The notes below the pieces were generated by a model. It made no database searches, was not told the origin of the DNA, and saw only the letters and a list, made by a program, of their open reading frames with translations. From an uncultured Candidatus Saccharibacteria bacterium (lineage in GTDB: Bacteria > Patescibacteriota > Doudnabacteria > UBA920), in the NCBI GenBank assembly GCA_964348935.1, contig CAYGEJ010000004.1, positions 4,538-68,537 on the forward strand: DNA of 64,000 nucleotides, in the 5' to 3' direction. The position numbers and the translations under genes are program-made. Of the stretch, positions 34,536 through 39,164 are shown one piece after another (position 1 is the first letter of the stretch; each line of letters begins with the position of its first letter).

Positions 34536-35159
34536 TTACCTAAATTTCCATTCATCTTCAATGTGTTTTTTAATTACTGATTTATAATCATTCGCATCAT
34601 TTTTACCAGAATAAGATCGGTTTATACTTCCTGCAATCATATCCGCCATTTGAATTAATACATTACTCTTAGAATCCTCCATTCTGCACTTCTTCATTAC
34701 TATTCTTTCTCTATTATTTAATTCTCTGCGTAAATAAGACAAAAAAGTTCTTCTAAAAACTCTATCCCCACTTCCGTCTATTTTAATTTTTGCATCTAAA
34801 ATTTTACCATCATTATGTTTTAATACCTCTTTGATAAAATAACTATAAAATTTATCTTTCTTAGTTTTTAATTCATCACTTCGAATTAAATTCTTTTCAA
34901 CCACCAATGTCCTCATACGAAAATTAAATGGCTTAATTTTATTTAAAAATTTTAATCTTATTTCACTATTCAGTTTAAAAAAGCGAAACTCTCTATAGTC
35001 AGCCCAACCCAATTCACTACGCAATTCTTTAATAGCAACTGCCACTTTCTCGGCTTCCAGCTCATCATCAAAAATAACCATTGCAATAATAAAAAAGTCC
35101 GTTGAGCCTTTTCCTAATTTAAATCCTGCATCTCCAGAATCATCTATAAAAACTAACAT
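34536..35159 (-). CDS. DUF3800 domain protein (last gene of the candidate defense operon)
   Basis: N-terminal MLVFIDDSGD motif and the C-terminal QMADMIAG motif typical of DUF3800. Confidence 0.65.
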   Translation of the reverse strand: MLVFIDDSGDAGFKLGKGSTDFFIIAMVIFDDELEAEKVAVAIKELRSELGWADYREFRFFKLNSEIRLKFLNKIKPFNFRMRTLVVEKNLIRSDELKTKKDKFYSYFIKEVLKHNDGKILDAKIKIDGSGDRVFRRTFLSYLRRELNNRERIVMKKCRMEDSKSNVLIQMADMIAGSINRSYSGKNDANDYKSVIKKHIEDEWKFR

Positions 35160-35189
35160 ATAAAACCTAATACTAAATTATTAATATAT

Positions 35190-35429
35190 CTACCTATGTG
35201 GGCAACCTGCCCAGCAACACGGCCGGCGCATTCCACCCGAAAGTTTAGATACCGCTTTTTCTATTCGTATTCCCCTAGTCTCTTGTTTCTTGCCACTAGT
35301 TACCCAACAAACCCATTCGTTCTTAGCCAATGGAGTAACACTCTCCCAAACCACCTTTGCCTTTGGGCTAGCCATAATAGCCTTACCCAAATCCCCAGGC
35401 ACACTATGTATTTTTTCTTTTTTGGTCAT
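35190..35429 (-). CDS. YdeI/OmpD-associated (bacteriocin-protection) family small protein
   Basis: PGDLGKAIMASPKAKVVWESVTPLAKNEWVCWVTSGKKQETRGIRIEKAVSKL matches the YdeI C-terminal family pattern. Start trimmed to MTKKEK to avoid overlap with the Mrr gene. Confidence 0.55.
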   Translation of the reverse strand: MTKKEKIHSVPGDLGKAIMASPKAKVVWESVTPLAKNEWVCWVTSGKKQETRGIRIEKAVSKLSGGMRRPCCWAGCPHR

Positions 35430-35439
35430 GGGATTTAAA

Positions 35440-36117
35440 TTAAATTTTTCTTGTACCTTTGCATTCTGGAAATTTTGAGCAGCCATAGAATTCACCAAAT
35501 TTTCCATTCCTTTTAACCATCGGGCTTTTACAAATTGGACATAAAATAGTTTCTGCTTTGCCAGGTATGGCAAAACTATCCATTTTTGCTTTTTCTAATA
35601 AATCTGCCAATTTAAAACCATCAATGAGTTCAATAGGTTTACTTTCGGCAAACTTTTCTGCTTCTAATGTAAATTTATTTGTTGTAATAAAAAAGCCTTT
35701 TGCCTGAGCTCCTTTATCTGCCATTGCTCCATAAAAATCCCTTACAGCACTAACAGGAACTTGCTGGGTAATAAATTTTTTACATTGGATATAATGTTTA
35801 ACTCCATTTTTTTCCGCTACTACATCTATTCCGCCATCATAAGCAGAGCCAGTTACTTCAACTATAAACCCAAGATTTTCAAACATATGGGCAATATATT
35901 GTTCAAATTCTTTTGGGCTTAAATCTTGTAACCATTTTATTAAACTTCTACCGCTTCTGTATTTTTCACCAATACTAAATTTTCTTTTTCTATTCCATGC
36001 GCCTATAATAACAGGTCCTATTTCACGAATTACCCAAACAACAATTATAAAAGCTAAAAACGGCCAAAAGGTTTTTAAAATATTTTCTATAACATTTCCC
36101 AAAAAATCTGGTTGCAT
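35440..36117 (-). CDS. Mrr-family (Mrr_cat) restriction endonuclease with an N-terminal TM helix and a C-terminal topoisomerase-type C4 zinc ribbon
   Basis: Mrr catalytic core (FENLGFIVEVTGSAYDGGIDVVAEKNGVKHYIQCKKF, D-x(n)-D/E-x-K-type). C-terminus CPICKSPMVKRNGKFGEFYGCSKFPECKG. Confidence 0.75.
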   Translation of the reverse strand: MQPDFLGNVIENILKTFWPFLAFIIVVWVIREIGPVIIGAWNRKRKFSIGEKYRSGRSLIKWLQDLSPKEFEQYIAHMFENLGFIVEVTGSAYDGGIDVVAEKNGVKHYIQCKKFITQQVPVSAVRDFYGAMADKGAQAKGFFITTNKFTLEAEKFAESKPIELIDGFKLADLLEKAKMDSFAIPGKAETILCPICKSPMVKRNGKFGEFYGCSKFPECKGTRKI

Positions 36118-36127
36118 AAAAATAAAA

Positions 36128-38152
36128 CTAAAGAATTTCTTGTACTATCCCTTGTACAATATCGCCATCATCAGGAACAATTGGAACATGTACAGGATTA
36201 TTACTTTTAGGTAATAAAATCCTTCGACCATCTCGTTTGTCATAATATTTTATAGTAACATTTTCACCACCCAATAAAGCAACAACCCTATCACCTGTTT
36301 GTCCTTTTTCTGAAAATCTACATAATACCAAATCTTGTTCATTTATACCTGCCATATTCATAGAATCGCCAACTGCCCTCACAATAAAATATTTACCGCC
36401 TGGTTTAAGTTTACTTTTTTCCACATTAATATATTCTTCAATATTTTCTTCACTAAGCAAAGGATTACCACATGGTGCTAAACCAACTAATGGTATTTTG
36501 ACCATTTCTTTAATTTTATCTACTAATTTTACTAAATTATGAGCTGGTATTACATGATCTAAATTTTGTTTTTTATGTTCATTAAAAATACTATTAAAAT
36601 AATTTCTAAGATTCAGATCTACAATATATACATATGTACCCATTATACCTCTAGTAAGTAGGGTCTTATAAATATTAATTATATATCTTTCAAGTTCATT
36701 TGGATCTGTAATACCGTTTCGCCCATTAATATCAAAATATTTTTCTTTATTCACCCCAAATTTTTTATTTATAGGATCGAAATAAAATTCAGGCCCTATA
36801 ATAACCCCAACATAATTTAAATCATACCCTTGAACAGTATGTATACAACCAATCTCATTTATAGCATTCGGAGAATTAACCCAATCTCTTGCTGTGGAAT
36901 TCCAAATCATTTTTAAACCTTCTATTTCAATATCGTAATCAACTAAACTTTTCTTGCCCTCCTTTGTATGCCATGGCCATGCATAGCCTGCCACAACTCT
37001 TGAAAGTTTGTGTAGCTGCTCCTTCTCCTTAATTTTATTTACCATATCTTCTGCATTTTCAAAAATTCTAAAATCATAATTTTGAAATATTGTAGTTTTA
37101 GGCTTCACTAAATTAAATATATCTTCTATAGCAGTAATGTATGTATCTCCTGCCTCAACACGCATTTGTATATTTAAGCCGTACTCTTTAGCTTTTAAAT
37201 TTTTAAAATCTTCAGGTCTAATGTCGGCAGGTTTTACTGTTTGATTCTCATCATAAAAAAAGATTTTATGCTTCGCTGATTTAATAACCCAATCAAGTTG
37301 TGTTCCTTCATTTCCGAAACCTAGAAATTGATTTACTTTATCAAAAGCACCAAAACCCATAATGCCTTTTCTACGTTGCAACCTATGTGATTCATCTACA
37401 ATTAAAACGTCGTATTTCTCCTTTACCACATCGTTTGGGCCTATAACCATATTCGCCTTCAAACCTTTAACTTTACTAAAGACTTTTTTTATTGTTGTGC
37501 GTAACGAAGCCATCGGCACAACTAATGCAATAGATAAATCTTTTGTCTCTTCCTGTTCTTTTAAGTATTTAAAAAGGTAAGTTGCAAGAATAGTCTTACC
37601 TGTACCAGGCTTCCCATTTACTATAAAAGTATTTTCATTATTCTTTTTAATATCATTAAAAATTTGTTTTACAACAAAAAACTGATCTTCGTTTAAAGAT
37701 TTATATGGGGAATATTTAAATAAATCACTATTTTTTATTACCTCCAATGGATTTACTACAACCCCCATTTCCATAAGCTTGGACCAAGCAATTTCAAATT
37801 TAGCTCTATACTTAAACCTGTCGTAGTAGTTATGATTCTTTAAGCCACCATTACCATTTTGAATAATATATTTTCCGTCAGCTGATATGTACTGAATAAG
37901 CCAAGACTCAATATCCAAAGCTGCAGAAACATTAAACTCCTCATCTGTAATAATATGAATTTCTTCTAATTTTCTTCTCTCTGGATTTTCATAATGTTGT
38001 TTACTTCTGTAATAGGCATTTACAGTCTGCCCAATATAAACCTCCTGTTTGTTTTCTAATACATAAACTACAGGCCAATTTCTACCAAAATTAAAATTTT
38101 TAATTTTGTCAAAATTGTCTTTATTATATTTAAATGTGACAATATTTGACAT
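36128..38152 (-). CDS. Tripartite fusion protein: N-terminal GIY-YIG nuclease domain, central P-loop DUF2075 (Schlafen-group-3-like helicase) NTPase, C-terminal LexA/UmuD-type S24 serine peptidase domain
   Basis: GIY-YIG: VYVLENKQEVYIGQTVNAYYRSKQH. Walker A GKPGTGKT at aa 180-187. Walker B VLIVDESHR at aa 248-257. S24: Cys561-Gly562 (APCGNP), Ser597 in AVGDSMNMAGI, Lys635 in VTIKYY. The Cys-to-Ser distance is 36 aa, from my recollection identical to the UmuD Cys24-Ser60 spacing. Confidence 0.8.
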   Translation of the reverse strand: MSNIVTFKYNKDNFDKIKNFNFGRNWPVVYVLENKQEVYIGQTVNAYYRSKQHYENPERRKLEEIHIITDEEFNVSAALDIESWLIQYISADGKYIIQNGNGGLKNHNYYDRFKYRAKFEIAWSKLMEMGVVVNPLEVIKNSDLFKYSPYKSLNEDQFFVVKQIFNDIKKNNENTFIVNGKPGTGKTILATYLFKYLKEQEETKDLSIALVVPMASLRTTIKKVFSKVKGLKANMVIGPNDVVKEKYDVLIVDESHRLQRRKGIMGFGAFDKVNQFLGFGNEGTQLDWVIKSAKHKIFFYDENQTVKPADIRPEDFKNLKAKEYGLNIQMRVEAGDTYITAIEDIFNLVKPKTTIFQNYDFRIFENAEDMVNKIKEKEQLHKLSRVVAGYAWPWHTKEGKKSLVDYDIEIEGLKMIWNSTARDWVNSPNAINEIGCIHTVQGYDLNYVGVIIGPEFYFDPINKKFGVNKEKYFDINGRNGITDPNELERYIINIYKTLLTRGIMGTYVYIVDLNLRNYFNSIFNEHKKQNLDHVIPAHNLVKLVDKIKEMVKIPLVGLAPCGNPLLSEENIEEYINVEKSKLKPGGKYFIVRAVGDSMNMAGINEQDLVLCRFSEKGQTGDRVVALLGGENVTIKYYDKRDGRRILLPKSNNPVHVPIVPDDGDIVQGIVQEIL

Positions 38153-38153
38153 T

Positions 38154-38501
38154 TTATAAATTTGTATACTTTGTATACTTACCCTTTGCCTTAACTACTG
38201 GATATTTTCTTTTATTTATTAACATCTTTTTATTAAAGGTCTTTACAATATCTATATTTAAATCCCAACTCATTAACAGCACCCAATATAATACATCTGC
38301 TAATTCTGCAGCAATATCATTTTTATTTTCTTTTACATATTTTTCAAGCTCTGTATTATTTTTCCATTGAAAATGTTCTAAAACTTCAGTTGCCTCCAAA
38401 ACCAAAGACAATGCAGAATCTTTTGGATTATGAAACTGTTTCCAGTTTCTTGCATTTCTGAAATCTAGAATACTTTTCGTTAATTTTTTAATTTCTGACA
38501 T
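38154..38501 (-). CDS. MazG-like nucleoside triphosphate pyrophosphohydrolase (small all-alpha NTP-PPase)
   Basis: RNWKQFHNPKDSALSLVLEATEVLEHFQW and AAELADVLYWVLLMS. The EExxE/D metal-binding helices of the MazG/dCTPase family. Confidence 0.7.
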   Translation of the reverse strand: MSEIKKLTKSILDFRNARNWKQFHNPKDSALSLVLEATEVLEHFQWKNNTELEKYVKENKNDIAAELADVLYWVLLMSWDLNIDIVKTFNKKMLINKRKYPVVKAKGKYTKYTNL

Positions 38502-38505
38502 AAAC

Positions 38506-38700
38506 TTACTTTTTCTTAATGGGTTTCTTTTTCCAGTCGCTAATAATTAGCTTGGTTCCTTTTTTTATTACTACTACCTTCTGCTTTTCTTTCCAACCTA
38601 ATTCTTTTACAAACTCAATAGGAAGGCTAACGACTAGGCTTTTGCCTGCCATTTTCATTAGCTTGCGAATATTGCGGTTTTCTAGGGTTTGGGTGGACAT
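38506..38700 (-). CDS. AbrB/MazE/SpoVT-family swapped-hairpin DNA-binding protein (antitoxin-like regulator)
   Basis: KSLVVSLPIEFVKELGWKEKQKVVV. 64 aa with a basic tail. Ends 4 nt before the MazG-like start. Confidence 0.65.
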   Translation of the reverse strand: MSTQTLENRNIRKLMKMAGKSLVVSLPIEFVKELGWKEKQKVVVIKKGTKLIISDWKKKPIKKK

Positions 38701-38703
38701 AGT

Positions 38704-38799
38704 AGATATAAGATTTAGGATATAAGATGTAAGATTTAAAAACAGGGAACAACGGATTTAGCTTGCCTACCTTCGGTAGGGATGTAAGATATAAGATTT
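38704..38799. repeat. Two clusters of tandem heptad repeats (GATRTAA on +, TTAYATC on -) flanking a UUCG-tetraloop hairpin (CCTACC TTCG GTAGG). Immediately upstream of the AbrB-like gene.
   Basis: 38704-38738 GATATAAGATTTAGGATATAAGATGTAAGATTT. 38781-38799 GATGTAAGATATAAGATTT. Hairpin 38766-38780. Confidence 0.6.
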
Positions 38800-39164
38800 G
38801 GGAACAAATGCGCTGGCAGGCGGGAGATTTGAATTCTATTATATAATGTATTATATAATAGTTTTAACTAAGTAAAAAGTGGTTGAGTTTTGCCTTAATT
38901 TTTAGACAACAAAAAATACTTTTTAACGATAATGGTACCCATAAACGTGAAATAATTAGAAAATAACCTCACCCTGCCCCTGCCTACCGGACAGGCAGGC
39001 TCTCCTCTTCCTACTTCGCCAAGGCTATGATGGACAAGAGGCTATGGCGGATCTTCGAGCAAGGAGAGGAATTTTGCATATAAACAACCTAGACAACAAC
39101 TCCCCTGTTCTGGTAATATTAGTCAGTTCCAAAAATCCAAAAACACTAGCCCCAAGGAGGCAGT

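Follow-up and report, generated by a model that had tools for sequence, protein, structure and literature searches.

The window analysed here, a 64,000-nucleotide stretch of contig CAYGEJ010000004.1 (assembly GCA_964348935.1) from an uncultured Candidatus Saccharibacteria bacterium, carries on its minus strand a two-gene cassette whose second gene (36128–38152, stop codon at 36128–36130) is a single open reading frame (ORF) for a 674-amino-acid (aa) protein that fuses a GIY-YIG nuclease, a DUF2075 helicase, and an S24 domain. The GIY-YIG nuclease core, delimited by a family profile and invariant residues, spans aa 24–105 (37838–38083). It is followed by a DUF2075/Schlafen-group-3 SF1B helicase core (aa 175–512, 36617–37630; Pfam E = 6e-65), with the Walker A motif GKPGTGKT at aa 180–187 (37592–37615) and the Walker B motif DESH at aa 253–256 (37385–37396). 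A variable linker at aa 523–552 (36497–36586), predicted to be disordered from the predicted local distance difference test (pLDDT) and from the alignment, leads from the helicase to a LexA/UmuD-type S24 domain of subtype A (aa 553–674, 36131–36496; Pfam E = 5e-18). Alignment to LexA places a putative scissile bond at C561-G562 in the motif APCGNP (36467–36472), together with Ser597 of GDSM (36362–36364) and Lys635 of TIK (36248–36250). The first gene of the cassette (38154–38501, minus strand) encodes a 115-aa MazG-like/DCTPP1-like all-alpha (d)NTP pyrophosphatase (PF12643), and its stop codon lies 1 nt ahead of the start of the fusion ORF. The combination of the three domains in one 674-aa ORF had been proposed in a first-pass annotation read from the sequence alone, which named no strand, and the motifs quoted there were found at the residues given.

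An assembly artefact can be dismissed as the source of the fusion, because the identical full-length architecture was found in more than 120 independent clusters at 90% identity. A word-index search returned more than 7000 matches, the best 120 clusters of which were full-length, were 65–77% identical, shared one architecture, and belonged to Patescibacteria/Candidate Phyla Radiation (CPR) wherever the source was named. The full-length AlphaFold2 (AF2) model (pLDDT 80.9) contains an SF1B core, a disordered linker at aa 526–548, and a LexA-like C-terminal domain. The pLDDT of the linker was <50 at aa 526–548, and the linker was also the least conserved part of the family alignment.

The Pfam match behind the S24 assignment (PF00717, Peptidase_S24) covered aa 554–659 with 65.4 bits against a cut-off of 23.3. 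In a phmmer alignment to Escherichia coli LexA, C561-G562 fell on A84-G85, S597 on S119, and K635 on K156, and the cleavage-site strand PLVG..A.CG.PLL was reproduced. The first-pass annotation had named Ser597 and Lys635 as the LexA dyad and had recognised a UmuD-type Cys-Gly site 36 residues before the Ser; both assignments hold in this alignment, in which the C561-to-S597 spacing is indeed 36 residues. The defining features of self-cleaving S24 proteins, namely the dyad and the cleavage site (PMC8565304), are thus all matched in the protein. The NCBIfam models for LexA (E = 4e-19; 69 bits, cut-off 111) and UmuD (E = 1e-11; 45 bits, cut-off 110) matched the C-terminal domain only; by NCBIfam, the protein is not a full-length LexA or UmuD equivalog, and it has no helix-turn-helix (HTH). 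Among close S24-containing relatives, C-G occupied the scissile position in 47 of 47, and the Ser/Lys dyad was likewise invariant. Distant S24-containing lineages kept the Ser of G-x-S-M and the Lys, and mostly had A-G or C-G 34–36 residues earlier, with bond and dyad both invariant in about 15 such lineages at 37–47% identity; two of them (P0147 and P0171) had no A-G/C-G within the interval scanned. Such conservation in close and distant members alike argues for selection on cleavage itself.

A separate model of aa 521–674 reached a pLDDT of approximately 90 in its core. This S24-only model best fitted 1jhe_A, 8s7g_A, 8gms_A, and 1jhh_B (TM 0.82–0.84, rmsd 2.3–2.5 Å over 125 columns), and fitted the nanobody-locked and G91D forms of LexA worse (rmsd 4.3–4.7 Å). 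We take 1jhe and chain B of 1jhh to be cleavable LexA conformers (Luo et al. 2001). The best Foldseek fits also included RecA-bound LexA complexes, as recognised by their PDB titles. The resemblance of the model to these conformers would fit self-cleavage of the S24 domain under stimulation by filaments of RecA on single-stranded DNA (RecA-ssDNA filaments, RecA*).

The two other domains were supported to different degrees. The Pfam matches anticipated in the first-pass annotation were recovered far above the cut-off for DUF2075 and S24, whereas GIY-YIG stayed below the threshold in the protein itself (17.4 bits against a cut-off of 22.6, E = 0.006). For the helicase, PF09848 (SLFN-g3_helicase/DUF2075) matched with 220 bits over profile positions 3–354 of 354, Walker A and B are intact with K186, D253, and E254 invariant across relatives, and a Foldseek search with the helicase model matched RecD2, Upf1, Dna2, Dda, and SLFN11. 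GIY-YIG is the weakest-supported of the domain assignments, yet the sequence contains the hairpin and the catalytic Arg, Glu, and Asn that define the superfamily. The call was secured by relatives that pass the Pfam cut-off (25–31 bits), by a family profile of aa 1–145 whose top matches in the PDB were only GIY-YIG nucleases (T4 EndoII, 1.7e-4; I-TevI, 2.5e-3; UvrC, 2.9e-3; also SLX1), and by the invariance of Y30, Y39, G41, R49, H53, E82, and N99 in 83 relatives. In the AF2 model, the secondary structure of this part runs in the order beta-beta-alpha-beta-alpha.

The pyrophosphatase gene is a constant companion of the fusion gene. In 82 of 84 loci, a same-strand MazG-like gene of 112–115 aa immediately precedes the nuclease-helicase gene, and the gap between the two genes is 0–5 nt in 71 of 85. 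In the window, its product scored 51 bits with PF12643 (MazG-like; cut-off 27), and in the PDB it matched 4qgp (E = 1e-16) as well as the DCTPP1 structures of mouse and human (E = 1e-15), which identifies it as a pyrophosphatase of the DCTPP1/RS21-C6 type. The metal-binding residues E36, E39, E42, E66, and D69 (E-x-x-E ... E-x-x-D) are invariant in 83 orthologues. The two genes form a tight cassette, and the first is catalytically intact as judged by its residues; by homology to DCTPP1, its product may hydrolyse dCTP or a modified dCTP. The pair is also kept in the distant S24-containing lineages, one of which adjoins a type III restriction-modification (RM) system, on each of the five IMG/VR contigs with a relative, on an unverified contig from the gut labelled 'Bacteriophage sp.' (MT836409; 40% identity), and on Bacillus cereus/thuringiensis megaplasmids (35% identity), where it lies beside HNH and zeta toxin genes.

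The family is large, and the S24 domain is not a fixed part of it. An exhaustive HMMER search found 6659 relatives, 437 of them below 1e-30 and most of them 520–600 aa long, and at least 587 loci in species-representative genomes encode a relative. ORF calls on 89 loci resolved two forms, one of approximately 670–716 aa with S24 and one of approximately 520–548 aa without it. The short form, which makes up about half of the close relatives, stops at query aa ~522 (~519–525), i.e., about at the linker. Both forms retain all the catalytic residues of the nuclease and the helicase, as well as the same operon partner. Among the top 150 representatives at 50% identity, a local S24 HMM detected a C-terminal S24 domain in approximately 20 (706–820 aa, 37–47% identity). 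In a neighbour-joining tree of the core without bootstrap support, forms with and without S24 were interspersed, as were the two S24 subtypes, A (APCG..PL, represented by the window protein) and B (SVGCGELM). Pairwise identities, which are independent of the tree, reached 0.86 in the core where S24 was just 0.47 identical; within subtype A, the median identity was 0.74 for S24 against 0.62 for the core. As read from these sequences, S24 is an optional add-on that has been repeatedly gained, lost, and swapped between near-identical cores. The interspersed forms and the mismatch between core and S24 identities suggest that it is a plug-in regulatory or sensor module, and its conservation above that of the core is as expected if it has to interact with a partner that itself varies little, such as RecA. 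Since forms without S24 keep both their catalytic residues and the partner gene, the predicted cleavage product resembles a form that functions independently.

Capture of S24 from a stand-alone UmuD-like gene was considered and rejected as a source of the module. The candidate donors were S24-only proteins of 126–131 aa with 76–78% identity, and tblastn identified them as 5'-truncated relics of fusion genes. Two such relics, L090:4773–5375 (query aa 471–674) and L092:4857–5375 (query aa 498–674), are labelled 'repressor LexA' in databases. The relics attest to decay of the gene and give rise to mis-annotation. The full-length architecture, though unstudied, is visible in databases, because the automatic JGI name, 'DUF2075 family protein/SOS-response transcriptional repressor LexA', contains both parts.

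Nhi, AbiO, and Nhi-like are established anti-phage proteins that combine a nuclease with DUF2075. Nhi (Staphylococcus epidermidis SERP2475) consists of a PD-(D/E)XK nuclease, DUF2075, and a variable C-terminal glyoxalase/bleomycin-resistance domain; it is a dimer, phage single-stranded DNA-binding protein (SSB) protects against it, and it is thought to sense phage replication intermediates. Nhi-like was described from B. cereus (Millman et al. 2022). The window protein shares with these three the order of an N-terminal nuclease followed by a DUF2075 SF1B helicase, as well as defence-type neighbourhoods, and differs from them in its GIY-YIG rather than PD-(D/E)XK nuclease, its obligatory MazG-like partner, and its C-terminal S24. 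The poorly conserved extra domain that Nhi also bears at this end marks the C-terminus as an accessory slot. A glyoxalase/bleomycin-resistance-like gene occupies the place of the MazG-like gene at one locus (L004:7519–7998), and at three loci the cassette has a glyoxalase gene as a neighbour (3/150 flanking ORFs). The association of a glyoxalase fold with DUF2075 nuclease-helicases, as in the C-terminus of Nhi, may not be accidental.

The closest precedent for the gene pair is the 'Pyrophosphatase' candidate system (pyrophosphatase + DUF2075; SG192 of B. firmus and SG193 of B. thuringiensis) in Table S2 of Millman et al. 2022 (bioRxiv 10.1101/2022.05.11.491447). As in the window, this system has a MazG-like pyrophosphatase of approximately 100 aa (43.6% identical to that of the window) followed by a nuclease-DUF2075 protein, whereas the latter lacks S24 and has an N-terminus of PD-(D/E)XK type, judged by eye from its motif. 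With LexA, UmuD, and lambda CI, the window protein shares the S24 fold, the Ser-Lys dyad, and a Cys-Gly bond of the UmuD type at the LexA position; its S24 tail is approximately 30% identical to the C-terminal domain of LexA. Where these proteins shed a DNA-binding domain or a 24-aa peptide, the window protein would shed a 561-aa nuclease-helicase, and it has no HTH. Its helicase is also homologous to that of mammalian group-3 Schlafens such as SLFN11 (PF09848, Foldseek), which are linked to DNA-damage and replication-stress responses; in contrast to the window protein, these have a Schlafen RNase core instead of GIY-YIG, and neither S24 nor a pyrophosphatase partner. A literature search returned no paper on the S24 fusion, on DUF2075-S24, or on a MazG-DUF2075 system other than the supplementary table of Millman et al., in agreement with the first-pass remark that no characterised defence protein of this architecture is known. 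Recent papers on 'bacterial Schlafen' proteins treat the RNase domain and not the DUF2075 helicase.

Apart from the MazG-like gene, the flanks differ at every locus. A census of 150 immediately flanking ORFs yielded 104 Pfam families, and the most frequent, with 2–4 occurrences each (raw counts), were NYN, Fic, NucS, McrB-N, YhcG, Mrr nucleases, PemK, AbiEii, YgjP, NERD, and methyl-directed restriction enzymes; NUDIX and Smr genes occurred occasionally. A defence-type setting, which had been suggested in the first-pass annotation, is plausible given these variable flanks rich in nuclease, toxin-antitoxin (TA), and RM genes, among which the MazG-like gene is the sole conserved neighbour, and by analogy with Nhi, AbiO, and Nhi-like.

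The invariant scissile bond and dyad, the intact and abundant short forms, the similarity of the predicted cleavage product to these forms, and the exchangeable, well-conserved nature of the module suggest that S24 is a self-cleaving regulatory extension of an effector able to act by itself. On this evidence, the most economical model is a pro-enzyme in which RecA*-stimulated self-cleavage would free a nuclease-helicase comparable to the short form that occurs in nature, a proposal to which we give slightly less than an even chance. The effector would be a nuclease-helicase resembling Nhi, most likely directed against phage or other invading DNA, with the S24 autoprotease tied to its C-terminus by the flexible linker, such that the full-length protein would be a restrained pro-form. 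RecA-ssDNA filaments, arising on DNA damage or on phage replication or recombination intermediates, would stimulate an intramolecular cut at Cys561-Gly562 by Ser597/Lys635. The cut would remove a 113-aa S24 fragment and leave a 561-aa nuclease-helicase, essentially the S24-less form of the family, which would then translocate on DNA and cut it, while the pyrophosphatase would join this response by acting on the pool of (modified) dCTP/dNTPs. As a more tentative proposal, which we regard as somewhat less likely than not, the S24 tail would be a post-translational sensor of infection or damage through which filaments of RecA or of a phage recombinase arm an immune nuclease-helicase within seconds and without a transcription step; CPR bacteria would shuffle this modular sensor between effector alleles, and a dCTP-type pyrophosphatase would attack the (modified) nucleotide pool. 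The earlier reading of the fusion, as a switch triggered by DNA damage or infection on a nuclease-helicase effector, is thus supported in part, and is extended by the operon partner, the optional and swappable S24, and the commonness of the family.

The conserved catalytic and scissile residues of S24 would also suit control in the opposite direction, with S24 dimerising or tethering the enzyme and being needed for its activity, and with RecA* removing it on host damage as a brake on autoimmunity that spares repair intermediates. Such a role would accord with LexA, which the same cleavage inactivates, and with Nhi, which acts as a dimer and whose presumed targets, phage replication intermediates, resemble host repair intermediates. 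However, S24-less relatives are abundant, are interspersed with S24-containing ones, and keep their catalytic residues and partner, which means that S24 cannot be generally required for activity, and we consider this alternative unlikely. Still less can be said for a tail that does not cleave and serves merely as a dimerisation or RecA-binding adaptor. Non-cleaving LexA-like proteins do exist in some lineages, but an adaptor would not need the scissile bond, the Ser, and the Lys together, and the S24-containing members conserve the C/A-G pair, the Ser of G-x-S-M, and the Lys; this possibility is very improbable.

Several observations weigh against a self-cleaving pro-enzyme with a role in defence. 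The pLDDT was <50 near the scissile bond (aa 559–562 in the full-length model and 563–567 in the S24-only model). The PADLOC models for Nhi (E = 9e-14) and AbiO (E = 5e-12) matched aa 142–379 only (profile positions 174–374 of 470), and because this is just the first half of the helicase, the protein is an analogue of Nhi and AbiO rather than one of them. In the Millman et al. screen (10.1101/2022.05.11.491447), SG192 gave no observed defence ('x') and SG193 failed to clone. An identity of 65–77% over more than 120 clusters is high conservation for a defence gene, viral contigs seldom carry the family (5 of 2.9 million in IMG/VR), and repair genes stand at some loci, including pyrimidine-dimer glycosylase (Pyr_excise, 2/78), DNA_alkylation, and UvrA. 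The negative test of the related pair SG192, the high conservation, with S24 above the core, and the chromosomal location in reduced CPR genomes with near-absence from viral contigs would all fit a function in DNA repair or damage tolerance in small-genome bacteria, in which the pyrophosphatase cleans the dNTP pool, the GIY-YIG/SF1B enzyme processes gaps or stalled forks, and S24 couples it to RecA filaments and SOS timing. The same function would suit the facts that DCTPP1/MazG enzymes are classical house-cleaning enzymes and that GIY-YIG is the nuclease fold of UvrC, as well as the occasional repair neighbours (Pyr_excise at two loci, DNA_alkylation, UvrA, and Smr). However, the family occurs patchily and without any conserved genomic position, decayed relics exist, S24 has been gained, lost, and swapped repeatedly, and the commonest neighbours are nuclease, TA, and restriction genes, with the Bacillus megaplasmid copies lying beside HNH and zeta toxin genes. 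In addition, no LexA box or other shared operator was found upstream of the cassette, as neither a common k-mer nor a common palindrome emerged from 79 upstream regions. We consider a repair function unlikely.

If the pro-enzyme model is correct, this would be the first case in which the LexA/UmuD switch turns an enzyme on, instead of disabling a repressor or processing UmuD, and it would bring a new input logic to prokaryotic immunity, in which the effector itself reads RecA filaments by proteolysis. It would also provide a function for a very common uncharacterised pair, MazG-like and GIY-YIG/DUF2075, which is especially frequent in small-genome Patescibacteria. The cassette is a variant of the Nhi-like nuclease-helicase systems, with a potentially new regulatory principle. 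Both the DCTPP1-like pyrophosphatase and the Schlafen-type helicase have human counterparts in nucleotide-pool control and in replication-stress or antiviral responses.

In the window, the cassette lies between genes for cfa synthase and deoxyhypusine synthase, in a stretch with a GC content of 30–33% against roughly 35–40% in most other 2-kb bins; no RecA or LexA gene was found in the 64 kb. A 225-aa protein with an Mrr_cat domain and a topoisomerase-I-type C4 zinc ribbon (35440–36117, minus strand) is encoded 10 nt downstream of the fusion ORF and matches PADLOC PDC-S02, mREase_IV, and the ZorD nuclease domain; Mrr_cat proteins adjoin two other loci, though not as a conserved partner. The region 34536–35573 (minus strand) contains a small OmdA/YdeI-like ORF and also encodes a DUF3800 protein that matches the PADLOC candidate PDC-M04A (E = 1.5e-11). 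On the other side, 4 nt separate the MazG-like gene from a 64-aa MazE/AbrB-like ORF upstream of it (38506–38700, minus strand). The Mrr_cat/zinc-ribbon nuclease, OmdA, DUF3800, and the MazE-like gene were rejected as system partners, since none of them recurs across 84 loci. With its single orientation and low GC content, this run of genes resembles a small islet of variable or defence genes.

Ahead of the MazE/AbrB-like ORF, three direct repeats of ~27 nt (GGATATAAGATGTAAGATTT...) lie at 38704–38806, and a perfect 12-nt palindrome, CTATTATATAAT/ATTATATAATAG, at 38836–38861 overlaps a promoter-like -10 element (region 38704–38867). These elements could serve as a local operator, with the MazE/AbrB-like gene as its regulator; they are confined to the window and are not conserved at the other loci. 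The order of the MazE-like and MazG-like genes recalls the mazE-mazF-mazG operon of E. coli, and at 10 related loci MazF/PemK toxins are encoded no more than ~4.5 kb away from the cassette. Carriage by phages or plasmids was considered and rejected, with only the five IMG/VR contigs and the single unverified 'Bacteriophage sp.' contig on the viral side, and with plasmid homologues in Bacillus and Streptomyces that are ~35% identical and lack S24. A second, distinct DUF2075 protein (PADLOC PDC-S41, best E = 3.6e-290) adjoins the cassette in three GTDB loci among L003–L089. In one CPR genome, a Multi_ubiq/ThiF(E1)/BubE set, which is a bacterial ubiquitin-like conjugation and defence-type module, lies just downstream together with an M78 peptidase and HTH pair (L005:10124–11850).

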